Source: a virus (taxonomy: Duplodnaviria > Caudoviricetes). Taken from it: a DNA stretch of 64,000 bases. The stretch spans positions 32,001-96,000 of IMG/VR virus record IMGVR_UViG_3300025838_000023; one strand, written 5' to 3'. Positions 1 to 60,243 of the stretch are shown one piece after another. The notes under the pieces are model-generated. The model was given only the letters and a program-made list of their open reading frames with translations, was not told where the DNA came from and ran no database searches. The translations under genes and the position numbers were made by a program. Within the stretch, counting starts at the first letter, position 1, and each line of letters opens with the position of its first letter.

Positions 1-801
1 ACTCACGTATTAGTAAATCGGAGCAATTTAATTAGAAACCTGCAAAAATCTTGTGGATGTCTAAGAAAAACCCAAAACGAATTATTAGCAGGAAAAACAT
101 TTGGAAAATTATTAGTATTAAATATTAATACTAAAACAAAAAAAGATGCAATGGGTAGCACATTTTGGGATTGTAAATGTGAATGCGGAAAAATTATAAG
201 TTTGCCAACATATTTATTAACCAGATCATATAACTCAAGAACATGTTGTGGTTGTGAATCTTTAGAAAGAATTCGGTCACATAAAATAATAAATTTAGAT
301 GGACAAATTTTTGGAAAATTAACAGCAATTAAACGTATGCCAGTATCCAAACGTGGGCAATTTTATTTATGTCGATGTGAATGTAAAAAAGAAGTTATAA
401 TTAGAGTAGATGCACTTAGAGAAGGTAGAGCACAATCATGTGGATGTATGAAAATGTCCATACACGAACAAATAATTTATAATATATTATATAATCTTAA
501 TGTCGATTTTGGAACTCAATATAGTTTTGATAATTGTAGATATAGTAGAAAAAATAGATTAAGATTTGACTTTAATGTTTTTAATAACGGAAAACTACAT
601 CTTATTGAATATCACGGCAAACAACATTATGAATCCGTGATATGTTGGGGTGGAGAAGATACATTTAAAATAAACAACATTAGAGATAAAATAAAATTAG
701 ATTATTGTAAGGATAATAATATACCATTATTAATTATTCCATATACAATAAAAAATAGTGAAATAAAAAATATAATTTCCAAATTTTTATTTACGACTTA
801 A
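1..801 (+). CDS. Homing-endonuclease-like protein (repeated FGKL..CxCxCG..SCGC modules + C-terminal PD-(D/E)xK/Vsr-like domain), 5'-partial
   Basis: Frame open from base 1; three CxC/SCGC repeats; RFDF..IEYHGKQHY motif. Confidence 0.75.
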   Translation, partial: THVLVNRSNLIRNLQKSCGCLRKTQNELLAGKTFGKLLVLNINTKTKKDAMGSTFWDCKCECGKIISLPTYLLTRSYNSRTCCGCESLERIRSHKIINLDGQIFGKLTAIKRMPVSKRGQFYLCRCECKKEVIIRVDALREGRAQSCGCMKMSIHEQIIYNILYNLNVDFGTQYSFDNCRYSRKNRLRFDFNVFNNGKLHLIEYHGKQHYESVICWGGEDTFKINNIRDKIKLDYCKDNNIPLLIIPYTIKNSEIKNIISKFLFTT

Positions 802-2404: not shown

Positions 2405-2416
2405 TTAGAATTATAT

Positions 2417-2809
2417 TTAATCACAATCATTTAACTCGTTATCGGTATAATGATAATACTCGATATATTCTTCTTTTTTAAATTCTATAGGTAATTTCAA
2501 ATACCTTTCATAATACATAGGTGCGCTCATCATTCCACAATTACAAACAAATCTATATTGAGTAATTTCAAAACCAACTTCAGGATACGGATTATGACAT
2601 TCCATTCTTGTTGATATTTCTCCACAAAAAGGACACATCATCTGTTCATTAAACCAACGTTCTTTATTTCTTCGTTCCACTTCCTCATAAAGAGGAATAC
2701 AACTTAAAGAATTATTGGTTTTCTCACAATATTTGATCGAATTAATAAGATGCAAATCCTCCATATCTTTAATATCCATCACAGAACCTTCTTTAGTTTT
2801 CCATTTCAT
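2417..2809 (-). CDS. Hypothetical protein (MKWKTKEG start, Zn-ribbon CPFC..CNC)
   Basis: ORF; start adjusted to avoid overlap. Confidence 0.55.
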   Translation of the reverse strand: MKWKTKEGSVMDIKDMEDLHLINSIKYCEKTNNSLSCIPLYEEVERRNKERWFNEQMMCPFCGEISTRMECHNPYPEVGFEITQYRFVCNCGMMSAPMYYERYLKLPIEFKKEEYIEYYHYTDNELNDCD

Positions 2810-2810
2810 A

Positions 2811-3035
2811 TTAATCGTATTCCACCCACCATGAAACACCACAATGAGGACAAGTATATTTATCATCCGCCCCGTCCCAAGAAGATACTGAGGTTGCATC
2901 TCCATGATATACTCGCAAGCCATTCCGTATCTTATCCTTCTTTGGTTCTTCTTTGATGCATTTAATCCATAAAGTTCCATCTTTATAGGTTTCGATTGGT
3001 GCTATATATTTTTGTTCTAATTTGTTATTTTCCAT
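2811..3035 (-). CDS. Small Zn-ribbon hypothetical protein
   Basis: ORF with CPHCG. Confidence 0.5.
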   Translation of the reverse strand: MENNKLEQKYIAPIETYKDGTLWIKCIKEEPKKDKIRNGLRVYHGDATSVSSWDGADDKYTCPHCGVSWWVEYD

Positions 3036-3843
3036 TTTTGTAATCCTCCCATGCAATTTCACTAACTCGCTTTACAATAGCTTCTTTATCATTTGCGTAT
3101 AATCCTGCTGATGAAAAACTAGTTAACTCCATCAACCAAAAATTTCCATCATTATCTTCTACTACATCCACGCAAAATACTGAATCTGGAAAATACCCCA
3201 CAGATAAAATTTCTTCACAGAATTCTCTAGCCTTTGGTGGAGCGGATGGAATTTGAGTTGCTAACCCCTGATATCTGTAAGAAGAAACGCTAATTATCTC
3301 CTTATGTCGAGTGCAAACAAATCTCCACTCACCACGAATGTTCTTAGGAATAGAAATAATTGCCAAATCGTTTTTGTATGATTCGAATTCTTCAAAAAAT
3401 CCAGTTGTATCATTTAAATCCAGTATTCCACCCTTAAATGTTTTGTCGCCAGTATCAGGACGAATGAAAATACAAGCTTCCTTTCCAAAGATTGCATAAA
3501 ATTGATACAATCTTCTTTTCAATTCAGATAGTGGAACCATTACATAATTATCGTTGAACAAATACTTACCAAAATGAGGGTAATATTTCGAACAATAATA
3601 GTTATCCCAATTACAATAAAGAATAGGATAATTGTTGTTACTTGATAATTGTTTATTTACTAATTTGCACATTTCAATACTACCATTAAATACCACACAT
3701 TCGTTTTTATAATGTGAAATATCATTGTGTGCAAAATCCCCTTTAATATCTTGTACAGGGAATCCTAGTTTTTTAGCAGCATCTGATAGTTGCAAAAAAC
3801 TTTCTTCTTTTGCCAAATTTTCAATAATCCAATTAACTTTCAT
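3025..3843 (-). CDS. ATP-grasp domain protein (DUF4343/R2K-like)
   Basis: FIRPDTGDKTFKG, EWRFV, FCVDV, LMELTSFSSAGLY. Confidence 0.8.
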   Translation of the reverse strand: MKVNWIIENLAKEESFLQLSDAAKKLGFPVQDIKGDFAHNDISHYKNECVVFNGSIEMCKLVNKQLSSNNNYPILYCNWDNYYCSKYYPHFGKYLFNDNYVMVPLSELKRRLYQFYAIFGKEACIFIRPDTGDKTFKGGILDLNDTTGFFEEFESYKNDLAIISIPKNIRGEWRFVCTRHKEIISVSSYRYQGLATQIPSAPPKAREFCEEILSVGYFPDSVFCVDVVEDNDGNFWLMELTSFSSAGLYANDKEAIVKRVSEIAWEDYKNGK

Positions 3844-4123
3844 AATTTTTATAACTTTCAGAAATTTCTTTATACCGTTCAATCATATTTTTTGTTAGTA
3901 GTTCATATGTTTTGTCAGAAAAATTTAGTAATGGCATAGCATAAGTAATAGGTTGTGAATTTCCATCAATAACTACTCGTATCCTTCCCATCATACAACC
4001 ACAAAAATATGATTTATCGGATACCCAAACATCACAAATCTTTTTAGTTTCGGTATTAAAAGCTACATGTTCGGTATCTATATTAAAATTATCAAGATTG
4101 TATTCATCAATTTTTTGTAACAT
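3833..4123 (-). CDS. Hypothetical protein
   Basis: ORF in tightly packed operon. Confidence 0.5.
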   Translation of the reverse strand: MLQKIDEYNLDNFNIDTEHVAFNTETKKICDVWVSDKSYFCGCMMGRIRVVIDGNSQPITYAMPLLNFSDKTYELLTKNMIERYKEISESYKNYES

Positions 4124-4292
4124 TTAAATCCTTTTCTAATTTTTTTAATCGAGTTATTTCATGTTTCATGGATTTATAATAACTTTCACTCAAAATTATA
4201 ACTTCGCTACCTTCTTCGAATCCAGAACAATCTTCTTCTCCAGCTACAAAGGTTCCACTTTCTATATATTCAGCTTTAATTACTTTTTTCAT
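4107..4292 (-). CDS. Hypothetical protein
   Basis: ORF in operon. Confidence 0.5.
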   Translation of the reverse strand: MKKVIKAEYIESGTFVAGEEDCSGFEEGSEVIILSESYYKSMKHEITRLKKLEKDLNVTKN

Positions 4293-4545
4293 AAAGATTT
4301 TCTCCTACTCTATATTCTAGTGTTGCAAATTCTCTCCCCCAACGCTTTAATGCCCATGACCACAATCTCCGCATTATCAAATTAGAATCTCTTTTCCCTG
4401 CCCTTGTAGATGATCCAGTAAATTCAGTATGGCTATCAACAACATTCAGCGCATATGCAATTTCAGCAAAGGAATCTGCCTCTGCTCTATGTAATGCTTT
4501 TATAGCTCGATAACAAAATTTTGAATTAGGAAATACTTTTTTCAT
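4276..4545 (-). CDS. Hypothetical protein
   Basis: ORF in operon. Confidence 0.5.
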   Translation of the reverse strand: MKKVFPNSKFCYRAIKALHRAEADSFAEIAYALNVVDSHTEFTGSSTRAGKRDSNLIMRRLWSWALKRWGREFATLEYRVGENLYEKSN

Positions 4546-4903
4546 TGCGATTCTTAATTATAACGAACTTTCCAGATGTTTCAAGAGATTTATCTTCTTT
4601 TTTTATCATATCAATCGGATGGTGAACTGCTCTACCACCAAAAGCAGTATCTTCATATAAAAACTGAGAGTTGCTAATAGGCGCAGAAGGCAGAAATTTT
4701 ATCTTAATTCCACTTTGCTTAATCGACTCGCAAAATTTCTCTCCTAACTTTTTAAAACATTCTTTCTGTTCATCAGTTAAATGGGAATCGTCCATTATTT
4801 TATATACAGGATCAGGAAAAAAGGGATAAGGATATGGTTCCTTTTCCTTATTCTTATCCAACATTTCCTCTATCTCTGCAATCGTTATAGAATCGTTTTT
4901 CAT
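4526..4903 (-). CDS. Hypothetical protein
   Basis: ORF in operon. Confidence 0.5.
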   Translation of the reverse strand: MKNDSITIAEIEEMLDKNKEKEPYPYPFFPDPVYKIMDDSHLTDEQKECFKKLGEKFCESIKQSGIKIKFLPSAPISNSQFLYEDTAFGGRAVHHPIDMIKKEDKSLETSGKFVIIKNRNEKSIS

Positions 4904-5160
4904 TTCTTATAAAAAGGATTATCCATTAAATGTTCTGTTAATCTACTAAAATAATGTTTTATACATATAGGGAGTTTGCAGTATTCTAAAATCTTCTCCA
5001 AGCACATTACAATTAAAAACGAAGGCATGAATATCCAACAAAGAAACAACATCAATAAATCTTCTCCGGTAACTTTTGGAGAATTTTTCATAACATCTCT
5101 CCATACCAATGTTCCAACAACTAGTGCAAATATTGAATATGTAATTAAATAGTAGTTCAT
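4900..5160 (-). CDS. Small membrane protein
   Basis: Two hydrophobic segments. Confidence 0.55.
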   Translation of the reverse strand: MNYYLITYSIFALVVGTLVWRDVMKNSPKVTGEDLLMLFLCWIFMPSFLIVMCLEKILEYCKLPICIKHYFSRLTEHLMDNPFYKK

Positions 5161-5378
5161 GCTTTTGTTTTCTTTTTTATTGTTAAATCATCTATCACAT
5201 TTTTAGTAACATCATCCAATACAGTTTCAATAAAAGTTCTTTGTCTGTTTGTCAATCCTTTGGTTTTAATATGGGTTACTAATGTATTGCAAAAATATAC
5301 CTCCATCCCTTCATAACTAAATATATTCTCAAATAACATTAATAGACATCTGTTATCAGCAACTTTAAAATCTTTCAT
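5157..5378 (-). CDS. Hypothetical protein
   Basis: ORF in operon. Confidence 0.5.
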   Translation of the reverse strand: MKDFKVADNRCLLMLFENIFSYEGMEVYFCNTLVTHIKTKGLTNRQRTFIETVLDDVTKNVIDDLTIKKKTKA

Positions 5379-5384
5379 ATTAAT

Positions 5385-5822
5385 CTACTTTAAAAGTTCA
5401 GGATTCTCAAAAATATTTCCAATAACGGTATCCCAATATAATACACCAAACTTTCGATGAGAAAATGTATTTATATCATCATTACAAAACATTGGAACTT
5501 TAGCCACCTTTTCTTCTATACAGTAATGACCATTTGAAAATACCACAACTCCTATAAAGTCCGAAGTTTCTATAATATCGCCTTCGTAAATTTCTTTGTC
5601 GTTCTTATCTTTCAAACCAGTCCATTGCATTATTTTATAAGTGTCACTAGGAAAAGCTTTTAATTTCGCAATATTATAATTGCAATATAATCTCCCACTA
5701 GCAGAAACCATATTTTCAGAACCATATAACATTTCTTTGAACTCAATATCCCAAACTCTAAATTTAAATGGAATACATTCTTTCATTTGTTCCTCATTTT
5801 CATATCCATAAAAATTATTCAT
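5385..5822 (-). CDS. YopX-family protein
   Basis: KFRVWD..MQWTGLKDKNDKEIYEGDI..VIGNIFENPELL. Confidence 0.9.
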   Translation of the reverse strand: MNNFYGYENEEQMKECIPFKFRVWDIEFKEMLYGSENMVSASGRLYCNYNIAKLKAFPSDTYKIMQWTGLKDKNDKEIYEGDIIETSDFIGVVVFSNGHYCIEEKVAKVPMFCNDDINTFSHRKFGVLYWDTVIGNIFENPELLK

Positions 5823-5823
5823 T

Positions 5824-6336
5824 TTATGCTACTTTCTCTATTGCTGCATTTATCGTATCTTCTAAAGTGCTATATATGATCCAATTTTTAGTATCCGCTT
5901 CTTTACCATGTTGCGTCCACATAATATCACCATACGCAATTCTATACGCATCATTAGGCCGACCATAAACCAACTTCTCACGATCTTTCGCAATCCAATA
6001 CCCAAACTCAAAATTTGTAGTAAGTGCAATCAATTCTCTCGTTCTCGCAATCCAAAATAAAATACAATCCGCTCTCTTCAACCCCTCGTTCTCCCACAAA
6101 GGAATGTCAAACTTACCTTTATCAGACTCCGTATTAGATGTGAACTCTGGAATAATAATAGTTCCATCAAAATTCGACTTCTGAAATATCTCTTCTGCCT
6201 TATACCTCCAAGATGGTTGTAAATGCAATTGATTACCTCTCACAGTCGGCCCCGCAAGAAATATTACCTTTCCTGTAACATTCTTCACAGTCTCAACAGG
6301 AGTTTCATATCTAAATGTAGTTGTCATAATTCCCAT
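5824..6336 (-). CDS. Nucleoside 2-deoxyribosyltransferase-like protein
   Basis: IFLAGP..WR..WENEGLKRADCILFW..TTNFEFG. Confidence 0.8.
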   Translation of the reverse strand: MGIMTTTFRYETPVETVKNVTGKVIFLAGPTVRGNQLHLQPSWRYKAEEIFQKSNFDGTIIIPEFTSNTESDKGKFDIPLWENEGLKRADCILFWIARTRELIALTTNFEFGYWIAKDREKLVYGRPNDAYRIAYGDIMWTQHGKEADTKNWIIYSTLEDTINAAIEKVA

Positions 6337-6371
6337 ACTTTAACAGATTCTATGGTTTTGTCAACGAAATT

Positions 6372-6935
6372 CTAATATGGAAATACATTTTTATCATAAT
6401 ACTTTTCTACTGCATTACGACAAAACATAATAGTATTTTCACTAACTGGTTTAAAATGCCATGCGTCAACTCCAACATTTATCATATTCTTCTGAACCTT
6501 CCACAATCCATGAATATGTCCTGTTATCGAAAATGACTTATCAATACAATTAGCAGGATAATGATTCAAATAAAATGACTTCCCTTGAACTTCTATCATA
6601 AAATCATCTTTAATAACATCAAAATACCTTCCTAACATTTTAAGCTTCGTCACATCTTCGTCATAATTTCCAATAATAAGCGTGAACGTAGATTTTGGAA
6701 ATTTATCACGCAACCATGACAATTCATTTATAGAATTTTTGTTGTTAAAATCATATACAACATCACCTAAATGTATAATCTCATCACCATCCACAAATCC
6801 TGATCTTATAACATTATCAATAATAACATAATCTTGTATTCCAATAGATGCAAACGGACGATAAAATAAGTTCGGATTTCCGTTAATCCCTATCCTATCT
6901 TCCCCTAAATGCCAATCTGATGTGAAGTATTTCAT
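6372..6935 (-). CDS. Calcineurin-like metallophosphoesterase
   Basis: FTSDWHLG, HLGDV, GNYD, LNHYP, GHIH, NVGVD. Confidence 0.88.
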   Translation of the reverse strand: MKYFTSDWHLGEDRIGINGNPNLFYRPFASIGIQDYVIIDNVIRSGFVDGDEIIHLGDVVYDFNNKNSINELSWLRDKFPKSTFTLIIGNYDEDVTKLKMLGRYFDVIKDDFMIEVQGKSFYLNHYPANCIDKSFSITGHIHGLWKVQKNMINVGVDAWHFKPVSENTIMFCRNAVEKYYDKNVFPY

Positions 6936-7158
6936 ATTAAGTATTTTTCATTTGTCAATCTTTATATGGGTCAAATTCGCTCGCTCCTGCCATTACGACA
7001 CGTTACTTTTTGTTATACATATTTTTTCATCAAATATCCCATTCGCGTATGAATGTAAATTTCCTGTTGTTATATCTCCCACCAAAGGATGAAGTTTTAA
7101 TGTTTCAACGTTCTTTTCTATGTAATCTATTATATCATGTATTTCTTTTCTCATAATT

Positions 7159-7350
7159 TTATTTTTCCTTTTTTTCGTAATCCAAAGTCATGTTAAGATG
7201 CACCCAATTAGTAGGTTCATGCATAAGGCAAACTGGAACATCTTCGGATTTCATCATAAAGTTTGGGAAATCGTCAGGAGTAACAATTTGAAGGTGGATT
7301 CCATGTTTTGCTAATGCTTCGACTAATCCATAAGCAGGAATATCAGGCAT
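7159..7350 (-). CDS. Hypothetical protein
   Basis: ORF. Confidence 0.4.
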   Translation of the reverse strand: MPDIPAYGLVEALAKHGIHLQIVTPDDFPNFMMKSEDVPVCLMHEPTNWVHLNMTLDYEKKEK

Positions 7351-7578
7351 ATCTAATCCTGTTATAAATTTTGGTAAGTTTTCGGTTATATTAAAATCTA
7401 AAAAAATTCACAAGTTCTTCGGAAGGATTTTTTATTTCCATATAAGATTCTGGACTACATTTTGGGCAGAGTCGAGCTTCCTCAATCTGTTTATATAAGG
7501 TTTCTTGAAATTTGACTATACCTTCTTGGCTAGTTACATTATAATAGCAATTTGGACAAGAATCATGGTATCGTTCAC

Positions 7579-7761
7579 TCATATTATAAATTCCTTTCCA
7601 CAACGTTTACAAGTATGGGTATAAAAGTGCCAAGGTTCTCCAATTTTCGAATCTGGATAATCATGGTAATCATTCCAATTTTGTTTTCCCTTGGACATTT
7701 CACATATTATATTATCATTAAATCTAAATAATGCAATTAGTGTTTTTATTAATTTTTTCAT
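7579..7761 (-). CDS. Hypothetical protein (DYHDY..CKRCG)
   Basis: ORF. Confidence 0.5.
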   Translation of the reverse strand: MKKLIKTLIALFRFNDNIICEMSKGKQNWNDYHDYPDSKIGEPWHFYTHTCKRCGKEFII

Positions 7762-8777
7762 ATAATTTTTCTCCGTTTATCTATACATCCTGCAATTTTA
7801 CCCATTTTAAATCTTTTTTGATAATTTTTTATTGTTCCTATCGGTATATTCATTTTTTTAGATACCTCAGTAGCTAACATAAATTTCAAATTTTCGTATA
7901 TTTTTTCTTTTATTTCATTGGTATATACTGGATATATATGTCCTTTTCTAGTTTTTTTAGGAATTAAAGATTTCTCATATATCTGTTTAAATATATTATG
8001 TTTTCTATCTAAGAATATGCCACAATTAGAATATAAAAACATATATATTTTTGCTATTTGTTGCACTCCACTAATACCTAACCGCCCAATAACTTTAGAT
8101 TTCTTTTTTCTATAAATATGACATCTACTCATTCCTAATTTAGTATTTAAATAATCATCATACATTTTTAAAAATTTCAAATTTGCGGTTAAATCAAACG
8201 ATTCTTTTCCGTGTTTATTACTAATACTACCGTCTCCATCGAAACATCCTAATAAAAAAGATGACATATATTCTTCAGGTAATTTAGGCATTAATATAGT
8301 ATCTGATTTATTAGGGAACAATCCTAATTTCTCTAAGCTTTTTCTAAACTTTTCATTCGTCACACTAAAAGATATAGAAGGATAACCTTTATTTTTTATT
8401 TTTGCAATATATTTTTTGATAGGTGCATTACTTTCTATTGATAGTTTAAACTTTTCTAAATGTTTGATATCCTTAATACTCAAATTTATTATTACCGCAT
8501 TACTATTTTTTCTCAAGTTTCCATCTGCATAAATAAACCCTAACCAATACGCCTTTTCATTACAATCTATATCCTCAAAATATTTTTCATTAACTATATA
8601 TTTAGAATGTGCTTCGGAATGAGTTCGTAACTTAATATTATTACCTAACAATCTTCTTTTAATAGTTCCTGCAAAACATCCACACATTTTAGCAAGTTCA
8701 TTTTGAGATATCTTTTCATCAACATAAAGCCTTACAATTTCTTCGGTTTTAAGTTTTAATGTTTTTCTAGTTTTCAT
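7758..8777 (-). CDS. LAGLIDADG homing endonuclease with HTH domains
   Basis: AYWLGFIYADG and FLLGCFDGDGS motifs. Confidence 0.88.
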   Translation of the reverse strand: MKTRKTLKLKTEEIVRLYVDEKISQNELAKMCGCFAGTIKRRLLGNNIKLRTHSEAHSKYIVNEKYFEDIDCNEKAYWLGFIYADGNLRKNSNAVIINLSIKDIKHLEKFKLSIESNAPIKKYIAKIKNKGYPSISFSVTNEKFRKSLEKLGLFPNKSDTILMPKLPEEYMSSFLLGCFDGDGSISNKHGKESFDLTANLKFLKMYDDYLNTKLGMSRCHIYRKKKSKVIGRLGISGVQQIAKIYMFLYSNCGIFLDRKHNIFKQIYEKSLIPKKTRKGHIYPVYTNEIKEKIYENLKFMLATEVSKKMNIPIGTIKNYQKRFKMGKIAGCIDKRRKII

Positions 8778-11312: not shown

Positions 11313-11355
11313 ATGTTTTATGTGGAGGTATATGAGATATACAAACAATAGAAGT

Positions 11356-12729
11356 TTAGTAAAAAGTATAACAATTTACAGAACTTTTATATGATTTGAA
11401 CTTAAAACCCTTATATGGATCACATTCATCTAAGGAAACTCTATATCTCTCTTTAGAGTTTTTTATATTAGAACATGTAGATATCCATTTATATTCATTA
11501 GTCAGTGAATTCTCCGTTTCCTTCCAATGGTGTAAGAATTTTGACTTAATATTAAATAAAGGAAAATACATATCTTTATTTCTACCAATTTTATACTGAA
11601 ATCCTCTTCTAGCTATTTCAATTGCTGCATTTACACAATCATAACTATTATATTGTAAGTTACCTATATAAGAACTATAAGCAGCAGTTACTTCATATAT
11701 TTTAACTCCTAAACATGGAATGTTATTTTTTAATTGATTTATTATAAGATTTCTATCCCATTTATTGTTACATAATCTATTATAATTCTTTCCTTTCTTT
11801 TTATCATTCGATTCCATTTTAAGTTCTTCTAATATACAATATTGAACTTTAAAATGTTTACATAAAGATATAATAGATTTTGATATTTCTAGAGTTTCAT
11901 GTTTTAGTTTATTATTCTTATAAATTGATTTAGGATGTGATGATTTGAATCCAGAAGAATCCGTCAGGCCGTTTAATTTATACATTTGTTTATGTATTAC
12001 TTTAAACTCATCATTTTTGAAATCTATAATAGCCAATCCAACATAATTCGGGTTTAAATCGATACCTAATATTCTTCCTTGTTTGAGTTTAGGATTTAGA
12101 ATTGAATAAGATACGGTTTCTGGTTCGTGGGTTTCAATAACTTTTAATAATTCAGGTTTATCATATGTTAGATAAATATATTCAGCATCTAGTTTAATTC
12201 CATATGAAAATAACTTCTTAGAAGAATATTTTTGTATATTTTCTAAAGTTTTCTTTATATTCTTTTTTGGAGTTAATATTTCCAGATTAAATTTCTTCTT
12301 ATTTAGTTTGAACAAAAATGAAAGTGATTCTAGGTATATTTCTATATGTCGATTTCCATTAGTTGCTATATCTCCTTGGAATTGAATTGAACGTAATTTT
12401 TTATTTGAGTATTCTTCTTTTGATATTATATTTTTAGCTCTTTTAATAAAATTTGATTTGCCACCAAAGATACATAATTTATTCTTTTCTAATTCAATAT
12501 CTGATGAATACATTCCTTTAGCTTCTATTATTGCAGTATCTAATATTCTTGAGTTCAAATTTGATATATTATTTAAATAATTCACAAGAGGTTTGATTTC
12601 TTTAGTATCTAAATTATCATAAAATCTATTATAAGCAAATCGAATTACATTAGTATATTCATTTCTAATGAGTTTTAGGTAATCATAGAACTCTTTTGAT
12701 GCTGTATATTTAAATTTTAGAGTTATCAT
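11356..12729 (-). CDS. tnpB: IS607-associated TnpB RNA-guided nuclease (no Zn finger)
   Basis: RuvC motifs ILGIDLNP, ILEEL, AAYSSYIGN..DCVNAAIEIARRG. Confidence 0.88.
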   Translation of the reverse strand: MITLKFKYTASKEFYDYLKLIRNEYTNVIRFAYNRFYDNLDTKEIKPLVNYLNNISNLNSRILDTAIIEAKGMYSSDIELEKNKLCIFGGKSNFIKRAKNIISKEEYSNKKLRSIQFQGDIATNGNRHIEIYLESLSFLFKLNKKKFNLEILTPKKNIKKTLENIQKYSSKKLFSYGIKLDAEYIYLTYDKPELLKVIETHEPETVSYSILNPKLKQGRILGIDLNPNYVGLAIIDFKNDEFKVIHKQMYKLNGLTDSSGFKSSHPKSIYKNNKLKHETLEISKSIISLCKHFKVQYCILEELKMESNDKKKGKNYNRLCNNKWDRNLIINQLKNNIPCLGVKIYEVTAAYSSYIGNLQYNSYDCVNAAIEIARRGFQYKIGRNKDMYFPLFNIKSKFLHHWKETENSLTNEYKWISTCSNIKNSKERYRVSLDECDPYKGFKFKSYKSSVNCYTFY

Positions 12730-13321
12730 TAGATATTTCTTTTTTTAGTTTATTTAATGTTCTTCTGTGAGAATACATTTTATCAGAGAAGCAATCTATA
12801 ATAGATATCAAGTCTTCTGTTAGTTCTTGTTCGTATGTTTTATTTTGTATAGTATCGTTTATTACTAATATTTTTGTTCCAAAGTATTTAAAAATTGATT
12901 CAAGGAGTTCGAATCCAAATCTGACTAATCTATCTTTATTTTCTATTATGATTAGTTCTACATTTCCTTTTATGGTTTCTTGTATTAGGTTATTGAATCC
13001 ATTTCTTTCGAAGTTCATTCCACTTTTGATATCTTCGAGTTGAGAATCTAGATGTATATTATTTAAAATACACCAATTATAAATTCTATTTGATTGTTCT
13101 TTTAGTTGGGATTTTCTATCATTGGAAGAGACTCTAGCGTATGATATATTGATCTTATTTTTCTTTTCTTTTTTTATCCCTATTAGTTTGTATACTGAGT
13201 TATCATCGTAGATGTAATGTTTATCATTGATTTTTGTGTATTTTATGTTACCATTTTTTACGTAATTATATAGAGTTTGTCTAGTTACGTTTAACAGTTT
13301 CATTACTTCTTTTGATTTCAT
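12710..13321 (-). CDS. tnpA: IS607 serine recombinase TnpA
   Basis: N-terminal MerR-like HTH; YARVSS, DIKSG, ENKDRLVRFGFE, ELTEDLISII. Confidence 0.93.
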   Translation of the reverse strand: MKSKEVMKLLNVTRQTLYNYVKNGNIKYTKINDKHYIYDDNSVYKLIGIKKEKKNKINISYARVSSNDRKSQLKEQSNRIYNWCILNNIHLDSQLEDIKSGMNFERNGFNNLIQETIKGNVELIIIENKDRLVRFGFELLESIFKYFGTKILVINDTIQNKTYEQELTEDLISIIDCFSDKMYSHRRTLNKLKKEISNDNSKI

Positions 13322-13431
13322 TCTAATTATATTTAACCATTTTTGTATAAAAAACTTGATTTGTTTTTATTTTATTTTATAAATTTATGGAAAATATGTT
13401 GACATTTCTATCATATGCCTCCATAATCTAA

Positions 13432-14850
13432 TTAGAGTTCTGCGTTTTTCCGAACTTCATCAAAAGTGTATGTTTTCAACATCATACCATTTTCAAAAAC
13501 AGTAACCAATTGACTTTCTCTATCTCCTAAATCCTTTTCTGGAATAGTTTGGTATTTTCCGTTTTCATCTTTAATAAGTTCCAATCTTCCCTTTTTCGAC
13601 ATCTTACCTTTATCATCAACAGGGTCTTTATATACTTCCACCCATTCATCTCCAAGCTTTGCAGCAGAACACTTAAATGCAAACTTTTGATCATCTCTCG
13701 AATGTCCCTGCAATAATTGGCCCCCCATTCCGAAGATAATACAATCAGTCGAATATCCATTATTAGTTACACAGTCAAGAATATATTTGATAGTTTCATG
13801 GCATAATCCATCACCATAGATCACTCCTATCTTTGGATTTAACACTTTATACCCTTTACTATTTATGGTATGTCCAAAGTATTTATCCAATTCTCGAATA
13901 ACACGAATGGAGGTTTCAACAGGATCACCACTATCAGGACGAACTACAAACTTTGCAAATCCTGTTTTTTGTCCACGATTAAGAATAGGCAATTTTAATT
14001 CTGTACCAAAAAATTCAATAGCCTTCCAAATATTATAACTATCAGATACAACACTTAATATTCCTTCTGGATATTCCTCAACAAATCTACGATATGCATC
14101 AAATTCGTGCTCTCTACCATAGATGCAAGTCGTTGAATGTTCTGTAGCCGCTACCGAATGTCCAACTCCCTTATCTGCACCATAATATCTTCGTGCATAT
14201 ACAATACCTTGAAGTGTATCAGTTCCTTTGAAATTTACTAGATGTGCGCTACCACCAATTCCAGCACTTTCCACACTAGAAACCCCACGGAATCCAAAAC
14301 AATTCAAATGAAAAGGAGAAACACCAGTATCACTACTAAACTTTGCGTATTGCCCTATGGTTTTTTTAATTTGATAACTTGTCGAACAAACCGAAATCGG
14401 GTACCATATTTCGTGTAAGACCGTTTCAGACCAATTGGTAAGCCATGCCAATTCTTCATCAGTAGATTCTACAATCACTAAAACATTCCGAGTTCCAACT
14501 ACTGATCCTTCTCTTACTGCACGAATTTTTATAGGCAATTTACCACCATGAACTTCAAGAATTCTTTCCCAACCTTTACGATTGAAATATTCATGAGTAA
14601 AAAATACATCACCCAAAATATCATCAGCATCATCAAGCATCCAAGGCTCGACAACAACACCAGAGAAATATTTCTCTAATACCATTTGTAGTCCGAAAAA
14701 TACCGTTTCGTCATATTTTCCTCCCCTACTTTCCAAATAACTATAAATTACTTTAGTGTTTTTTGGATATTGCAACCAATGTGTTTCCTTATAAGCATCT
14801 GCCAAAAGGATCGTGTTTTCTGTTCGTCTTGTCATATTATCTTTTATCAT
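13432..14850 (-). CDS. nadV: Nicotinamide phosphoribosyltransferase (NAMPT)
   Basis: DAYKETHWLQYP, FGFRG, HLVNFKGTDT, ATEHS, VSDSY, VRPDSGDP, FGMGG. Confidence 0.93.
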   Translation of the reverse strand: MIKDNMTRRTENTILLADAYKETHWLQYPKNTKVIYSYLESRGGKYDETVFFGLQMVLEKYFSGVVVEPWMLDDADDILGDVFFTHEYFNRKGWERILEVHGGKLPIKIRAVREGSVVGTRNVLVIVESTDEELAWLTNWSETVLHEIWYPISVCSTSYQIKKTIGQYAKFSSDTGVSPFHLNCFGFRGVSSVESAGIGGSAHLVNFKGTDTLQGIVYARRYYGADKGVGHSVAATEHSTTCIYGREHEFDAYRRFVEEYPEGILSVVSDSYNIWKAIEFFGTELKLPILNRGQKTGFAKFVVRPDSGDPVETSIRVIRELDKYFGHTINSKGYKVLNPKIGVIYGDGLCHETIKYILDCVTNNGYSTDCIIFGMGGQLLQGHSRDDQKFAFKCSAAKLGDEWVEVYKDPVDDKGKMSKKGRLELIKDENGKYQTIPEKDLGDRESQLVTVFENGMMLKTYTFDEVRKNAEL

Positions 14851-31003: not shown

Positions 31004-31032
31004 AAAAAAACCGAAGGACATTAATCCTTCGG
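31004..31032 (-). terminator. Intrinsic terminator of GOLLD-like RNA
   Basis: CCGAAGGA-loop-TCCTTCGG + T7 on - strand. Confidence 0.85.
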
Positions 31033-31376
31033 AAGTTTAGAACACGGTTGAGATTAAACCGTTTGTAGTATCACCTTCGGAACATTATAGTATAATTGCG
31101 TCATACTTTCTTTCCTTATCCTCGTAACCCCTACTTAAAGGCAATTACGACTGATACCAAAGCTGCTTTTTTATAGATGTAGCATTTCATCTGAAATGTT
31201 AAGTTATTCTACCTTCCTCTTACACTCAAGCTTGCGACCTGTTCAACTCCGCTAAGAGTTTAGCTGCGATTCCGATAAACAATCTGAAACCTTGCGAGTC
31301 TCACACTGCCCTAATTATGTTACCATTTAGGGATTAAGCCATTTTCGCTTAACATCACCAACGACTTTGCTGTTTG

Positions 31377-31830
31377 TAGTAATAATCGGATTTGAACCGA
31401 TAACATTTAGTTTAATAGAGTTATCATAAGCATAGAAGAATATAACTATTTTCTAGATTTATGCCTTAAAGACTTTTTATTCTATTTTATAGGATTTAAA
31501 AGGAAATCTATAACTCAATTTAGATTTCTTTAATTTGGAATATAACGTTTCTATGAACCAATTTTAGTATTTGATCTACCATTTTCTTCCAATGAGTAGG
31601 AAGAATACTAAAACCAATTCAAAGATATATTTTATATCCATTTTTATTATCATCTTTCAATGATAAAAATTGTTTTATTATAATAGTATTTATTCTACTT
31701 TATATCAAAATCAAGAGATAAATATAAAAATAATTTAAATTGTATAATATTTTTCTTAACTTATCTTAAAAATGTTATATTATGTATTAAGTTTTATTAG
31801 ACTAATGCGCTACCATTGCGCTATATTGCA
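31377..31830 (-). tRNA. tRNA-like domain (anticodon ATT, Asn-type) embedded in the ncRNA and interrupted by mini-element A
   Basis: After removing 31419-31800: D arm GCGC-AATGGTA-GCGC, TTAGT-CTATTAA-ACTAA, T arm ATCGG-TTCAAAT-CCGAT; weak acceptor stem. Confidence 0.65.
31419..31800 (-). mobile_element. Non-coding IS607-derived mini-element A, copy 1
   Basis: Near-identical to 47939-48303; TCT core at both junctions; left end matches 63219ff; right part is a decayed tnpB 3' end. Confidence 0.85.
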
Positions 31831-32371
31831 ACCTATCCAAGTGGAGCGTTGGTTGTAGCCTCATTCTCTTTTGAAGAACGGATACTACTCCACTTATATC
31901 TTTCTCTTGCGGATACTTGATGTTATTTCTAGATCGAAGCTGAAAATTAAAGTAATCAACTTAAACCTATCATAATGCTACTAAGCCCTTGGTTGCTTAA
32001 CGACCTCGAACCTAATAACTCCCCTTTACTGTCAAAACTCAATGTTTGGCATAGAATCGTTTCAGACGCTACTCTTTAGAATCAAATATACTACAGTGTT
32101 ACCCTCATATATCTAATTCCCGATTCCCATTTTCGCTTATACCTCACGAGTATGAGTCGTAAGGATACCAGGCGGGTTTGCATAAATGTCCATATTGCTA
32201 TGGTGCGGCTCTGTAGGAGAATTCCGCTTTCCTCACCTTTCGATGATGTATCTTCATCTCCACCTTTCGATGGAAATTGTTGGACGTTATACCGCCCAAA
32301 ATTTTTAAAATGTAAAAGATCAAAACAAACTTCAGTTTGCTTATTGTTATCTTATTTATCCAAATCCGAAG

Positions 32372-34006: not shown

Positions 34007-34442
34007 TACAGTTAGATAAAACATCAATTTTTATCTTTTTAAATGGGCAGGGACTGTAAGCTCCTACCAACCATAGAAGAAAGTGAATAACTTGGTGTTT
34101 ATTCCGATCAACGAATACGGTTATGTATGCATAATACGGGTCTTCGGGTATTTCATAGGGTTACATACCTTTTCCGATTCGACTATACATACACTGGTTA
34201 ATTACAGTAATAAAACAATTTAATTTTCTGATAACCTATCTTACGATTAAACCTTTAGATTCTATCTTATTTTATACCTTATCTTCCTCTTTTATTTTTG
34301 TTTCGAATATTAAAATACCCCCTCTCTTCTAATACTCTGTTCTTATTTAATCATAAATAATTTTTAAATCAACTACTATTTACATTTAATTCATATCATT
34401 CCTTTATAAAAATGTATATTATATGCGACTAGTCGCTAACAC
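34007..34442 (-). mobile_element. Non-coding mini-element B, copy 1
   Basis: Near-identical to 53019-53454; AC/GT core at both junctions; sits between the HNH promoter and its SD. Confidence 0.82.
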
Positions 34443-47793: not shown

Positions 47794-47938
47794 ACTATTA
47801 TTTAGCAAACTTTTAATCCTTATAAATTCATATCAAAGATAAAACTTCATAAATATTAAAACCATTGCTAATAGATAAATAACTATATGAATAAAGATAC
47901 CATACTTCTAGAAGAATTATATATGAAAATCGTAGAAG

Positions 47939-48303
47939 AGTTATCATAAGCATAGAAGAATATTACTATTTTCTAGATTTATGCCTTAAAGACTTTTTAT
48001 TCTATTTTATAGGATTTAAAAGGAAATCTATAACTCAATTTAGATTTCTTTAATTTGGAATATAACGTTTCTATGAACCAATTTTAGTATTTGATCTACC
48101 ATTTTCTTCCAATGAGTAGGTAGAATACTAAAACCAATTCAAAGATATTTTATATCCATTTTATCATCTTTCAATGATAAAAATTGTTTTATTATAATAG
48201 TATTTATTCTACTTTATATCAAAATCAAGAGATAAATAATTTAAATTGTATAATATTTTTAACTTATCTTAAAAATGTTATATTATGTATTAAGTTTTAT
48301 TAG
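47939..48303 (-). mobile_element. Non-coding IS607-derived mini-element A, copy 2
   Basis: Copy of 31419-31800; precise removal restores the reading frame. Confidence 0.88.
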
Positions 48304-48646
48304 ACCAATTCGGAAATGCTACTCTCATATGGCTAGAAAAAGATGGAACAGTTTATGATACAGAAGAAACCCAACATGGAATCTACGTAGCGGATAATGC
48401 CTCTTTATTTGGCGTGAATTATAACTTCGCAAAAAAGACTTTCGATAAATATGGAGACGAAGGAATTGATGAAGCAGCAGCAATAATGTGTGAACAAGCC
48501 TTCAAAAAAGGTTGGATGCGTGTTGTTAAAGTGCCTTGGAATAAAAAGATTTTCGTCGAAGGAAACGAACCAACAAAAGCACAAAAACATGTAATCGAAG
48601 ATTGGTATTTCGAAGATACTAGTTGGGATGTCATTTGGCAAAGATG

Positions 48647-49878
48647 GGTTGGTAACAGTAGTTTGAAATTCTAAAAAATCTAAAGTTATAAAAATAATTC
48701 ATTATTATGGGTTAAATTACAAGAAAAGTAAAACACATTTAGATAAATATAAATGTGAAGATAATAAGAGCAGTTAAATGCACAAACAAATTTGCTACTA
48801 AAAAGAAGCAAGATGTTCTTACATCTTTACTTGCCGAATACGGCAATGTTGTAAATTTCTTCATTGAATTCTTTTGGTTAAAAGATAAACTTCCAACTAA
48901 GAACGATCTTTTAAAACATATAGTTGATCTACCAATACAAACAACTTGGCTTTCAGCCAGATTACGTAAAACTGCTGCTAGAGAAGCTATAGATATGATC
49001 TTAGCAGTAAAAGAAAGATGGAAAGATAAACCAGATAAAATAAATAAACCAACACACCAAGGTAAAAGAATGTGCTGTTCTTCAACAATAGCAGAACTCC
49101 AAAACTCAAAATCTTCATTCGATAAATACCTTAAAATAGGTTCTGTTGGTAAGAAAATTAAACTAGAAATACCAATCAAAAAACATAAACAGTTTAATTA
49201 TTGGGAACGTCAAGGCAGACGCCTTAACTCATATATTATAACTAAAGACTATACTCAGTTCGTTTTCGAAATCGAAACTGGAACTAAAAAGGATCAAGGT
49301 AAAACAATTGGTATTGATACTGGTATTAAATGTCTAGCAACTCTGTCCAATGGACAAAGAATAGGAGACAAAATAGAAGATATAATAATTAAAATCAATA
49401 GATGCAAACATGGTTCTAAAAGACAAAAGCAATTAAGGAATTATCTACGTCATTATATTGATACTAGTGCAAAAGAAGTTTTTAAGCAGAATCCTAATTT
49501 GAGTAGGATTATAGTCGAAAGACTAAGTAATATGAATTTTAAATCGAAGATTAAGCGTAAGCTTGGTCGTAAGATGAGAAAAACTATCGGTAGTTGGAAC
49601 TACAGATATTGGCTATCTAGAATGGAAAGAAACTGTGAGGAGAACCGTGTTCGATATTCCAGTATAAATCCAGCTTATACGAGTCAATGCTGTAACCAAT
49701 GTGGTCATACTGACAGGATGAATCGATCAAAACAAGATACTTTTTATTGTGTTAAATGTGGTCATACTGACCATGCTGACCATAATGCAGCTAAGAATAT
49801 TTTGGATCGTGGAATCTCCCTAGTTTATCGTCGGGGGTAATAGTTTAAATTTTAGATTTTTTAGAATTTAAACAACGG
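48647..49878 (+). mobile_element. tnpB-only IS607-like element
   Basis: GG at both junctions; subterminal inverted repeat aaattctaaaaaatctaaa; removal extends the host ORF. Confidence 0.75.
48755..49840 (+). CDS. tnpB: TnpB RNA-guided nuclease (Zn-ribbon type)
   Basis: IGIDTG, IVERL, INPAYTSQCCNQCG, C.KCGH..HADHNAAKNI. Confidence 0.92.
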   Translation: MKIIRAVKCTNKFATKKKQDVLTSLLAEYGNVVNFFIEFFWLKDKLPTKNDLLKHIVDLPIQTTWLSARLRKTAAREAIDMILAVKERWKDKPDKINKPTHQGKRMCCSSTIAELQNSKSSFDKYLKIGSVGKKIKLEIPIKKHKQFNYWERQGRRLNSYIITKDYTQFVFEIETGTKKDQGKTIGIDTGIKCLATLSNGQRIGDKIEDIIIKINRCKHGSKRQKQLRNYLRHYIDTSAKEVFKQNPNLSRIIVERLSNMNFKSKIKRKLGRKMRKTIGSWNYRYWLSRMERNCEENRVRYSSINPAYTSQCCNQCGHTDRMNRSKQDTFYCVKCGHTDHADHNAAKNILDRGISLVYRRG

Positions 49879-52782: not shown

Positions 52783-53463
52783 TGGTTTTCGTTGCAGCTT
52801 TCGACTCTGCTATAGTAGCTACAAATGCGATGTGCTAATGCTACCGTGTTTCCCATGCAATGCCTCTCATATACCCTTTATGGTATTGTCACTGATTTAT
52901 TATAAGTGCCTGTCTAGCCTTTCTACTAGCTCACGTTTTTTATGGTTAGCCCATCGCATTGTTACACTTTATCTTCTATCAGCGTTTTACATATACTATC
53001 TATTACCCACATATACTATACAGTTAGACAAAACATCAATTTTTATATTTTTAAATGGGCAGGGACTGTAAGCTCCTACCAACCATAGAAGAAAGTGAAT
53101 AACTTGGTGTTTATTCCGATCAACGAATACGGTTATGGATGCATAATACGGGTCTTCGGGTATTTCATAGGGTTACATACCTTTTCCGATTCGGCTATAC
53201 ATACACTGGTTAATTACAGTAATAAAACAATTTAATTTTCTGATAACCTATCTTACGATTAAACCTTTAGATTCTATCTTATTTTATACCTTATCTTCCT
53301 CTTTTATTTTTGTTTCGAATATTAAAATAACCCCTCTCTTCTAATACTCTGTTCTTATTTAATCATAAATAATTTTTAAATCAACTACTATTTGCATTTA
53401 ATTCATATCATTCCTTTATAAAAATGTATATTATATGCGACTAGTCGCTAACACTAAACGAAA
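52783..53463 (-). ncRNA. tRNA-like RNA with a ~175-nt structured insert in place of the anticodon loop, interrupted by mini-element B
   Basis: TTTCGTT/AACGAAA-ACCA; ATAGTA/TACTAT; T arm GCAG/CTGC. Confidence 0.55.
53019..53454 (-). mobile_element. Non-coding mini-element B, copy 2
   Basis: Copy of 34007-34442 with a handful of SNPs. Confidence 0.82.
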
Positions 53464-58129: not shown

Positions 58130-58331
58130 AATCGTTTATTATTTCTACTACATGGTTATGGTTTCTTAAAACTCTCACTGTGCTAGAATATGTTATACAA
58201 CCATCTCTTGGGTATGTATTAAAACAAAATCTCCACATTTGTTCGCTTGTCATTTCTTTACCATCAACAATATAAAAAGTTTCTAATCTTTTCACTTTAT
58301 CTTCGCCAAATATCCAATTAAGTAATCCCAT
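58116..58331 (-). CDS. Hypothetical protein
   Basis: ORF (MGLLNW start). Confidence 0.45.
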   Translation of the reverse strand: MGLLNWIFGEDKVKRLETFYIVDGKEMTSEQMWRFCFNTYPRDGCITYSSTVRVLRNHNHVVEIINDYEYR

Positions 58332-58335
58332 ATTT

Positions 58336-58899
58336 TTATTTCTTATAAATTTTAATTCTGTAATCGTAAAATTCTTTAGCATTTCCCCAAAATCTTTCTT
58401 TATCATCAATATCAATTTCCTCTCCGTTTGTCAATAATACAGAGAGTTTATTACCATTTTTATTACCCACATCAATAATACGTTTCCAAAAATCCTCTCC
58501 TTGGGTAGAATGTTTGTTACCACTTACTACAAAATCATAATCTTTTAAATAATAATCAAATAATAGACGAAACGCAAATCCCCTTGATGCTTTCCACTGC
58601 CACACGCTATCAATAAACATTCCTCCATTTTTAATAATATAAATAAATTGTGCTCTGGTTTCCGGTTTTGGTGTAATAAAAGAATCATAAATTATCCCTT
58701 TAATGTTCTCTCTTATACATCGTAATTGGTAATCAAAATAATCTACGTCTACATTTATTGGAATACTTTTAGATAACAACATTTTAGTATCTTCAATATT
58801 ATATGCCAAATTATCCATAACATCTCCATGATATTTTCCTATACGCATTGGAGATTCTGTTAGTATTTTATTTTTGTAATATTCCTTAAATGTTATCAT
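58336..58899 (-). CDS. Tandem paralogue 1 (187 aa), putative internal head protein, GNAT-like
   Basis: MITFKEYYKNKILTE-SPMR. Confidence 0.7.
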   Translation of the reverse strand: MITFKEYYKNKILTESPMRIGKYHGDVMDNLAYNIEDTKMLLSKSIPINVDVDYFDYQLRCIRENIKGIIYDSFITPKPETRAQFIYIIKNGGMFIDSVWQWKASRGFAFRLLFDYYLKDYDFVVSGNKHSTQGEDFWKRIIDVGNKNGNKLSVLLTNGEEIDIDDKERFWGNAKEFYDYRIKIYKK

Positions 58900-58901
58900 A
58901 A

Positions 58902-59465
58902 TTATTTTTTATAAATTTTAATTCTGTAATCATAAAATTCTTGAGTGTTCCCCCAAAACCGTTCTTTATCATCTATGTCAATTTCCTCTCCGTCTCTTAG
59001 TATTACTGAGAGTTTATTACCATTAGAGTTTCCATAATCAATAATACGCTTCCAAAGTTTTTCTCCTTGTGTTGTATGTTTATTATCACTTACTATAAAA
59101 TCATATTTCTTCAAATAAAAATCAGTAAGTATTTTAAATGCTAGTCCCATTTGCGTTTTATATCTCCAAACACTATCAATATATATGCCATTATCCTTTT
59201 CCTTGAAGAAAAAATACGCAATAATTGATGGCATTGGGTCTATAAAATAATCATGAGCCACTTCATTATAAACTTCTCTGACATATTTCATCGGGTAAGA
59301 AAAATATCCCAAGTCTATATCTTTGGATGGAGTGGTTTCTAATAATTCCTTTGTTTCTTCAGTATTTAGAAGTATATGGTCTAAGTATTCTCCAAAATGC
59401 ATACCTGAACGCATTGGAGATTCTGTTAGTATTTTATTTTTGTAATATTCCTTGAATGTTATCAT
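58902..59465 (-). CDS. Tandem paralogue 2 (187 aa)
   Basis: Same termini as neighbours. Confidence 0.7.
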   Translation of the reverse strand: MITFKEYYKNKILTESPMRSGMHFGEYLDHILLNTEETKELLETTPSKDIDLGYFSYPMKYVREVYNEVAHDYFIDPMPSIIAYFFFKEKDNGIYIDSVWRYKTQMGLAFKILTDFYLKKYDFIVSDNKHTTQGEKLWKRIIDYGNSNGNKLSVILRDGEEIDIDDKERFWGNTQEFYDYRIKIYKK

Positions 59466-59467
59466 AA

Positions 59468-60031
59468 TTATTTTTTATAAATTTTAATTCGGTAATCATA
59501 AAATTCTGGAGTGTTCCCCCAAAACCGTTCTTTATCATCTATGTCAATTTCCGTTCCGTTCTTTAATAACACAGAAAGTTTATTTCCATTTTTTGTTCCG
59601 TAATCAATAACACGTTTCCAAAAATCCTCTCCTTGGGTTGTATGTTTATTATCACTAATTATAAAATCATATTTTTGTAAATAATAATCAATCAACAATC
59701 TATATGCCATACCAATTTTCATTTTAAATTGCCAAACACTATCCATTATTATCCCTCCATTAGATTTCTTATACATAAACAATGCAACTATTAATGGCAT
59801 AGGATCAATAAAATAATCATAGTTTATTGTATCATGAACATCATTAATATATTTCAACTGATATGTAAGATATGGCAAATTTAATTCAGTATAGGAATTT
59901 TTATCAATTAGTGTTTTAGCATCATCAACATTTAACGCCATATCATCCATGTAATCAGGAAAATATATACCCAAACGCATTGGAGATTCTGTTAATATTT
60001 TATTTTTATAATATTCCTTAAAAGATTCCAT
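59468..60031 (-). CDS. Tandem paralogue 3 (187 aa)
   Basis: Same termini as neighbours. Confidence 0.7.
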   Translation of the reverse strand: MESFKEYYKNKILTESPMRLGIYFPDYMDDMALNVDDAKTLIDKNSYTELNLPYLTYQLKYINDVHDTINYDYFIDPMPLIVALFMYKKSNGGIIMDSVWQFKMKIGMAYRLLIDYYLQKYDFIISDNKHTTQGEDFWKRVIDYGTKNGNKLSVLLKNGTEIDIDDKERFWGNTPEFYDYRIKIYKK

Positions 60032-60033
60032 AT

Positions 60034-60243
60034 TTATAATTCGTTTAATGATAGGAGAAAATGTGCGAATAATTTAGCTCGATTTTTCATTGTATCAGGA
60101 CAATTATCATCAAAGAACTCGGCAAAAATAATACTTCCATGATTATCATTAACTACCACGCCATGTTCATTGCATTGTTCTAAATACCAAGGTTGTGGAG
60201 CATAATACCTATAATTTTTTAGATTTTCTTTAATATTTTCCAT
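60034..60243 (-). CDS. Hypothetical protein
   Basis: ORF. Confidence 0.5.
   Translation of the reverse strand: MENIKENLKNYRYYAPQPWYLEQCNEHGVVVNDNHGSIIFAEFFDDNCPDTMKNRAKLFAHFLLSLNEL

Follow-up and report, generated by a model that had tools for sequence, protein, structure and literature searches.

A protein-free derivative of an IS607-type tnpB transposon with a conserved guide-RNA scaffold in a large uncultured phage

Introduction

Two gene-less segments, 384 and 367 nt long and nearly identical, interrupt a tRNA-like gene and a small protein gene in a phage contig. The locus raises the question of what these segments are, how they came to be where they are, and whether the RNA they could specify might direct a nuclease that they do not encode.

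The window analysed here is a stretch of 64 kb, corresponding to bases 32001-96000 of a linear virus record of 106,782 bp in IMG/VR (contig G000) with a CheckV completeness of about 49% and a GC content of 31%. Ten tRNA genes and one tmRNA are present in the window, and its helicases, GroEL-like chaperonin and nicotinamide phosphoribosyltransferase match phage families; the source is therefore a large uncultured phage. A BLAST search of the locus against a public phage genome collection gave no match and no close relative. The closest complete phages, G001 and G002, carry one apiece of the full-length elements described below, and neither a miniature copy nor a homologue of the GOLLD sequence flanking one of the segments was found in them.

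Results

Anatomy of the miniature copies

The two segments, referred to as mini-A, lie at 31418-31801 (M1, minus strand, 384 nt) and 47938-48304 (M2, minus strand, 367 nt), in each case including a TC core at both junctions. BLAST aligned them at 95% identity across the whole 382 nt, and a repeat finder reported the blocks 31417-31635 and 47937-48155 at 98%, with further blocks beyond, so that the near-identical copies originally predicted near 31419-31800 and 47939-48303 are real. Most of the differences are small indels in A/T runs. A third copy, M3, 98% identical to M2, was found in the metagenome contigs Ga0208872_1000274 and Ga0208111_1000700, where its flanks are unrelated to contig G000; with the two in the phage contig this makes three copies. 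Exact-pattern scans of IMG/VR for mini-A or right-end motifs found none.

Both M1 and M2 are in the minus orientation relative to the full-length copy in the window, and the right ends of the minis on the plus strand, when reverse-complemented, match the start of that element at 63218 (inverted repeats I1/I2, 83-87%). The left-end module is approximately 122 nt (31680-31801, minus strand, in M1). Its homologue in the full copies is their untranslated left end, which it matches at 77% identity to just short of the tnpB start. The original prediction had placed this match correctly, but at about 60 nt had made it too short. The right-end module of about 262 nt is 83% identical to the last 270 nt or so of three full 1,460-bp elements. 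An unrelated right end in the full element at 63219 would have spoken against the proposed derivation; instead the right ends align at this 83%. The right part is, as claimed, a remnant of the 3' end of tnpB, but the TnpB at 11356 is not its nearest counterpart. It is far closer to the TnpB of the element at 63217, and since the 11356 protein shares only 28% identity with TnpBs of that type, the parentage is assigned to the latter.

Compared with a full tnpB, the remnant has six indel sites and a TGG to TAG change, and is therefore non-coding. The left and right parts meet at an AATA microhomology, a little before the would-be tnpB start. This junction is common to M1, M2 and M3 while their flanks differ, which implies one deletion followed by transposition of the product. 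A promoter-like sequence, TTGATA-17-TATTAT (score 10 of 12), spans the deletion junction in M1; sigma-70-like sites of this kind occur in the window at chance frequency, no more commonly than in shuffled sequence. A reading of TAAATA as a late promoter found no support, as TATAAATA is not enriched and is in fact under-represented in the window.

Several shorter or similar pieces were noted in passing. Near M3, at 6977-7072 of locus L096 (Ga0208111_1000700, 1-8141), there is a 96-nt right-end remnant truncated at its 5' side, and the same contig has 64-nt repeats that are also present near the start of contig G000. In another phage (IMGVR_UViG_3300005976_000005) a right end of about 185 nt stands alone at 1410-1606 (minus strand) of locus L090, near 91.8 kb of the record, and is 97.8% identical to the same phage's full tnpA-tnpB element. 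It has a TATAAATG box directly upstream and no left end that could be recognised, and is either a guide scaffold left stranded or what remained after a deletion. Lastly, the window has a second gene-less repeat family of 436 nt (34007-34442 and 53019-53454, 98.6% identical). On the minus strand it ends in TCTAACTGTA, which resembles the right ends of some tnpA-bearing relatives (L011 and L012). It was rejected as a second guide cassette, its match to the guide-RNA model described below being only 3.6 bits.

Full-length elements and their nuclease

Three full-length 1,460-bp elements (F1 to F3), each containing tnpB only, are present in contig G000 at 12081-13540, 95217-96676 and 98456-99915. 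Each consists of a 146-nt left untranslated part and a single ORF of 434-435 codons whose stop is 2-5 nt from the right end. F2 (G000 95217-96676) begins at 63217 of the window on the plus strand and leaves the window at 64000. Its tnpB starts at 63365 and encodes 434 amino acids, with the stop 5 nt before the right end.

The 434-aa ORF had no match by sequence in the local Pfam, in PHROGs or in the PDB. It had 187 significant relatives in a large protein collection, and a few sources label these as IS605 OrfB or predicted transposase; PF27229, which is missing from the local Pfam, is a precomputed tag on relatives. A locus search with a single protein query gave no matches, and an alignment-based search gave 209 in IMG/VR phage contigs, often several per genome. 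An AlphaFold model of the protein, built on 44 sequences (pLDDT 87.6, pTM 0.79), was compared with known structures by Foldseek and matched Cas12f (1.7e-9), the ISDra2 TnpB (8h1j, 3.5e-6) and also a mimivirus Fanzor2. Assignment to TnpB follows from this fold search, the searches of Pfam, PHROGs and PDB sequences being uninformative. D201, E267 and D331, the D/E/D of the RuvC site, are invariant, and the zinc-ribbon CxxC pair is absent. By fold and by these invariant residues the parent ORF belongs among the accessory nucleases of the TnpB superfamily.

Differences between the full copies are concentrated at third codon positions (76 of 112 between F1 and F2), a pattern from which the three intact tnpB copies are judged to be under purifying selection. 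Per site, variation in the last 89 codons is 3-5 times lower than in the remainder of the gene, which is what an RNA overlapping the coding sequence would lead one to expect.

Two side observations concern other nucleases of this kind. In the loci L046, L055, L056, L059, L060, L067, L068 and L072 the tnpB-like gene is full of table-11 stops, and tblastn aligns it from end to end, which suggests stop-codon recoding in the phages concerned, whose contigs are large (up to 554 kb). In the window itself, a TnpB of yet another kind, the third, is encoded at 48755-49840 (plus strand), approximately 450 nt from M2. This 361-aa ORF carries a Cas12f1-like TNB zinc-ribbon domain (PF07282, 1.4e-15), matches a PHROG transposase and has no relationship to the mini-A scaffold. 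Elsewhere in the window, three tandem 566-nt repeats at 58257-60037 (minus strand), 68-86% identical and each with a 187-codon ORF, form a small array of paralogous genes.

Junctions, core and predicted TAM

Full and miniature copies alike start TC-TAATAAAAC and finish ATAAC-TC, with TC at both junctions in F1-F3 and M1-M3. The right TC is followed by T in five copies, by C in M3 and by G in the relative L010. The original prediction named a core of TCT; this triplet does stand at both junctions of M1 and M2, but what all copies share is TC (M3 has TCC at its right junction), and given the C in M3 and the G in L010 the core is best read as the dinucleotide. The C in M3 may be a point change that postdates insertion.

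The five-base stretch that closes with the left core is CAATC in two of the full copies and TAATC in the third; the minis have TAGTC, TGGTC and TAGTC, and two related phages have AAATC and AAGTC. At its right end the element reads AACTC. Every target thus has a purine at position -3, where the element has C, a difference of the kind that would let a nuclease spare the occupied site. From this comparison of target and element bases the predicted TAM is approximately RRTC, in place of the TAM ending in TCT that had been proposed.

The predicted guides are the 20 nt directly 3' of the right end, at 31398-31417 for M1 and 47918-47937 for M2 (both minus strand); these positions are deduced from the fact that the scaffold described below ends at the element boundary. 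They begin one base earlier than the guide starts first put forward, which were therefore misplaced. The M1 guide would correspond to the 3' side of a tRNA-like anticodon arm, and neither 20-nt sequence occurs a second time in the contig.

Insertion sites

M1 lies in a tRNA-like gene (31376-31830, minus strand) whose halves, 31376-31419 and 31802-31830, are separated in the anticodon loop. ARAGORN recognised the 73-nt tRNA-like fold, called Asn-ATT, only when M1 was removed and one core kept; the acceptor stem is imperfect and the insertion falls between loop positions 33 and 34. The tRNA-like unit is nested inside a match to GOLLD RNA (Rfam RF02032), itself split by M1 into 31045-31466 and 31758-31895 (minus strand). 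The split match scores 130.9 bits (E 1e-35), just below the gathering score of 150, and is followed by a terminator-like hairpin at 31011-31032. M1 has the same orientation as the surrounding GOLLD RNA.

M2 splits a gene on the plus strand (47887-48671) near its start and is antisense to it. Removal of M2 restores a single plus-strand frame of about 140 codons, and the short N-terminus of this frame is matched in homologues of 141-148 aa (78-81% identity) that carry no interruption. The downstream part of the split gene (48600-48671, plus strand) diverges after WQRWV and stops approximately 12 codons before its homologues, and it may already be decaying. M2 is co-oriented with the minus-strand tRNA genes called in the window. 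The M3 site, in an 8-kb contig, is poor in ORFs (none above 185 codons), and no tRNA or Rfam match was found there. Exact-pattern scans of IMG/VR for natural empty alleles of M1, M2 and M3 found none. No target-site duplication was seen in the predicted empty sites, where a single TC core restores both the tRNA-like fold and the gene.

The location of M1 in an anticodon loop, in the orientation of the host RNA, brings to mind an intron or an IStron that splices itself out of RNA and so leaves the tRNA-like/GOLLD transcript functional. IS607 IStrons do exist (10.1101/2023.11.20.567912). However, neither the full nor the mini element had a group I or II intron match in Rfam at E values up to 1, M2 is antisense to the gene that it splits, and the left end is only about 122 nt long. 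We regard self-splicing as scarcely credible for mini-A.

Assignment to IS607 and the candidate TnpA

The minis and their full-length parents have no tnpA of their own. One complete IS607-type element does occur in the window, on the minus strand at 11333-13433, with its right end near 11333 and an approximate left boundary; it has a PHROG transposase match (5.5e-46). Its serine tnpA (12710-13321, minus strand) encodes 203 aa with a MerR-type HTH, a Pfam Resolvase domain and a YARVSS motif. The end of this gene overlaps the tnpB-like ORF at 11356-12729 (minus strand), whose product is homologous to the TnpB of the full copies (28% identity, E 6e-44), and this tnpA-tnpB overlap within 11356-13321 is the IS607 arrangement. 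The tnpA at 12710 is the only serine recombinase in the contig. The same type of TnpA was found in 18 of 79 related phage loci, in 17 of them directly upstream of the nuclease gene and on the same strand.

The ends of mini-A are unrelated to each other in sequence, ie there are no terminal inverted repeats. Folding of the left end gave no significant hairpin (z 0.38 and 0.09 against shuffles), and no match to a Y1 transposase (Y1_Tnp) was found in the contig. The serine TnpA of the relatives, the lack of a Y1 enzyme and of a left hairpin, and the TC core without duplication together assign the family to IS607 and not to IS200/IS605.

The competing assignment is to a PATE of IS200/IS605 type, which a Y1 (HUH) TnpA would move in single-stranded form; RRTC would then be the target motif on the 5' side of the left end, and ACTC the motif cleaved at the right end. 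The empty site which it predicts is identical to that expected for IS607, and the right end does have a hairpin, about 18 nt from the terminus. A palindromic hairpin is lacking at the left end, however, as is the Y1 transposase, and the nuclease relatives lie directly behind serine TnpA genes, with the same TC at both junctions in every copy. On this evidence the PATE assignment is very improbable.

The features of a non-autonomous IS607 derivative that can be sought in a sequence were found, and mini-A is accordingly identified, with high confidence, as a protein-free deletion derivative of an IS607-family tnpB-only transposon. The grounds are the common junction at three sites, the precise empty sites, the covarying RNA described below, the TnpB/Cas12f fold and the serine TnpA beside relatives. 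The central part of the original prediction, a mobile, protein-free IS607-type derivative reduced to the left end and the 3' end of tnpB, is thereby borne out. Which TnpA mobilised it is less certain, since the ends of the resident element at 11333-13433 resemble those of mini-A at the tips only and half of the genome is missing. The TnpA at 12710 is a candidate.

The guide-RNA scaffold

The right ends of the full copies, the minis and five related loci were aligned, and the alignment contained hairpins with compensatory changes. A covariance model of 190 positions, R1, matched tnpB-like 3' ends at 70 places, ending at the element boundary. The full copies scored about 199 bits, M2 174, M1 168 and the resident IS607 element 41. 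In M1 the predicted omegaRNA scaffold occupies 31418-31645 (minus strand; 168 bits, E 9e-29), with 31 of 33 pairs intact, and in M2 47938-48160 (minus strand; 173.7 bits, E 8e-30), with 32 of 33. The M2 scaffold has an MFE of -46.6 kcal/mol (z -3.49). No Rfam family matched the scaffold at E values up to 1.

In 64 distinct sequences the 33-pair structure was 85.5% paired, compared with 61% in shuffles and at most 47% with the partners slid, figures that are favoured by the alignment, as five of the seven helices were in the model that built it. Changes on both sides were seen in 28 of the 33 pairs, and none of 500 shuffles reached the observed values. A pseudoknot joins the hairpin loop GAGTTA to the last six scaffold bases, TAACTC, and is 92% paired. 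It covaries as CAGTTA/TAACTG and as GAGATA/TATCTC, the latter being the pair found in the resident IS607 element (match at 11333-11540). As the pseudoknot uses the last six bases, the end of the RNA coincides with the boundary of the transposon. A further hairpin and a long stem precede the modelled part and bring the structured domain to approximately 225 nt in all. In the parent the scaffold lies wholly inside the tnpB coding sequence; the mini has kept all of the structured domain and about 35 nt more.

An intact scaffold with no nuclease gene, and with a sequence that differs from the resident TnpB scaffolds, might be viewed as a decoy or regulator, ie an RNA that titrates or redirects TnpB and serves something other than its own retention. 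RNA anti-CRISPRs titrate or redirect a nuclease in this decoy fashion. Against such a function, each copy of mini-A has the normal flank-derived guide position, the guides match nothing else in the contig, and nothing suggests selection for inhibition. We consider a decoy quite improbable.

Preservation of the scaffold in the minis

Relative to F1, M2 has 26 substitutions in 188 aligned columns and one broken pair, and M1 has 28 substitutions and two broken pairs. The same base changes placed at random break 7.3-7.8 pairs (P 0.0003 and 0.0017), although M1 and M2 are one lineage and not independent samples, and both were in the alignment from which the structure was partly derived. Two pairs of one hairpin are compensated, TA to CG and GC to AT. 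None of the 29 positions conserved in the family (the same base in at least 80% of 59 other members) is changed in the minis, compared with 28-30 of the 160 variable positions (Fisher P 0.006-0.009). The sites of all the indels fall in loops or linkers. This pattern fits selection on the RNA, as judged from the substitutions, some of which may have arisen in an unsampled coding parent. Codon-position analysis, aimed at dating the divergence relative to the loss of coding, gave no informative pattern; the coding relatives, too, have little third-position excess in the RNA-constrained stretch.

These data bear on the main alternative, in which mini-A is an inert, decaying derivative that moves by means of its TnpA-binding ends and the omegaRNA is an unused passenger, its scaffold seeming intact only because most divergence took place in a coding parent, before a comparatively recent deletion. 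Such a history would agree with the single documented deletion event and with substitutions that lack an informative codon-position pattern. It would also agree with the disruption of genes by the insertions (the tRNA-like/GOLLD unit at M1 and the gene of about 140 codons at M2), and the 96-nt remnant and the solo right end in another phage show that such pieces decay. It accounts less readily for the extent of the right end. The end segments bound by TnpA in the IS607 literature are far shorter than the approximately 262 nt that mini-A has kept, and the retained length covers the whole structured domain. Moreover, the frameshifting indels must postdate the loss of coding, and they avoid the stems; 31-32 of the 33 pairs and every one of the 29 conserved positions survive. 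An inert passenger is a possible account of mini-A, which we nevertheless think unlikely.

Discussion

Proposed origin and use

In the reading preferred here, one deletion at the AATA microhomology removed almost all of tnpB and fused a left end of about 122 nt, containing a promoter-like region, to a right end of about 262 nt containing a complete omegaRNA scaffold. The product was then transposed to at least three sites, precisely at TC and without target duplication, presumably by a serine TnpA supplied in trans. Each copy is most probably transcribed, from its own left-end promoter or by read-through, the latter being plausible because M1 is co-oriented with the GOLLD RNA and M2 with minus-strand tRNA genes. 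The transcript would consist of the scaffold and a flank-derived guide. The TnpB of the full-length copies, which is intact and under selection, could take up this RNA, and the complex would cut the empty allele (purine-purine-TC plus flank) after excision or in a co-infecting genome; recombination would then restore or copy the insert. The mini scaffold is 83% identical to those of the resident TnpBs, and the true TnpB partner may be another, unsampled element.

The steps of this scheme differ in strength. Anatomy, mobility, family, RNA structure and the preservation of that structure are observed, whereas transcription, loading, cleavage, homing and the choice of TnpA are inferred, and so are the use of the guides in trans by the TnpB at 63365 and the drive in mixed infections that the original prediction put forward. 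For functional use of the guide by mini-A we see even chances on the present analysis. Identity and guide use taken together as a single explanation are rated as moderately probable, a compromise between the two. A stronger version, in which mini-A is a long-lived, selected, guide-only selfish element that borrows the phage TnpB, homes into the uninterrupted alleles of co-infecting phages and is maintained at the anticodon-loop/GOLLD site, seems doubtful to us. If true, it would make mini-A a hyperparasite of TnpB transposons and a protein-free analogue of the homing endonuclease genes of phages.

Comparison with known systems

The guide-only principle is already published, both for the IS605 PATEs and for engineered IS607 mini-elements acting in trans. 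In the open-access literature we found no description of a natural guide-only mini-element of IS607 type, or of one in a phage.

The PATE-like protein-less IS200/IS605 elements of Geobacillus stearothermophilus encode omegaRNAs, and their dependence on TnpA and TnpB in trans has been stated explicitly (10.1101/2023.03.14.532601). PATEs and mini-A are alike in being gene-less miniature transposons that have kept both ends and a guide-RNA scaffold and that need TnpA and TnpB in trans. They differ in mechanism and in host: PATEs have palindromic subterminal hairpins, a Y1 TnpA and a single-stranded DNA pathway and reside in a bacterial chromosome, whereas mini-A has no left hairpin, a TC core and relatives with serine TnpA, and resides in a phage.

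Short non-autonomous transposon derivatives that multiply in a viral genome are also known as MITEs, for example the submariner elements of Pandoravirus (PMC4495683, PMC6004678). Viral MITEs resemble mini-A in that respect and are unlike it in having inverted repeats, target duplications, a DDE-type origin and no guide RNA.

The closest experimental parallel is the Clostridium botulinum IStron. There, an IS607 TnpA excises a mini element without tnpA and tnpB, the IS607 TnpB works equally well with its omegaRNA in trans, and the omegaRNA of the CboIStron has the downstream strand of its pseudoknot at the right end (10.1101/2023.11.20.567912). Each step of the scheme proposed above thus has a precedent in IS607, with an engineered mini element and an omegaRNA supplied in trans. 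Like the mini-A family, the IStron lacks inverted repeats and target duplications, and in both there is a dinucleotide core, with the pseudoknot strand at the right end; a scarless donor joint is likewise shared and so, to judge from the relatives of mini-A, is probably the serine TnpA. However, the C. botulinum mini-IS is engineered and mini-A is natural and has spread, the core is GG in the former and TC in the latter, and the group I intron of the IStron has no counterpart in mini-A. In addition, the nuclease of the mini-A family belongs to a zinc-finger-less clade that is missed by the local Pfam-A, and the mini-A scaffold matches no Rfam family.

Several features are now defined for this clade of TnpB, which large phages commonly carry: its ends, the TC core, the predicted RRTC TAM and the scaffold of about 225 nt with its terminal pseudoknot. 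This makes the clade directly testable. Mini-A is a natural IS607-type counterpart of the guide-only IS605 PATEs. It suggests that the separation of guide and nuclease also arises with a serine-recombinase transposon, and does so in a phage genome of virulent type, where co-infection would allow homing.
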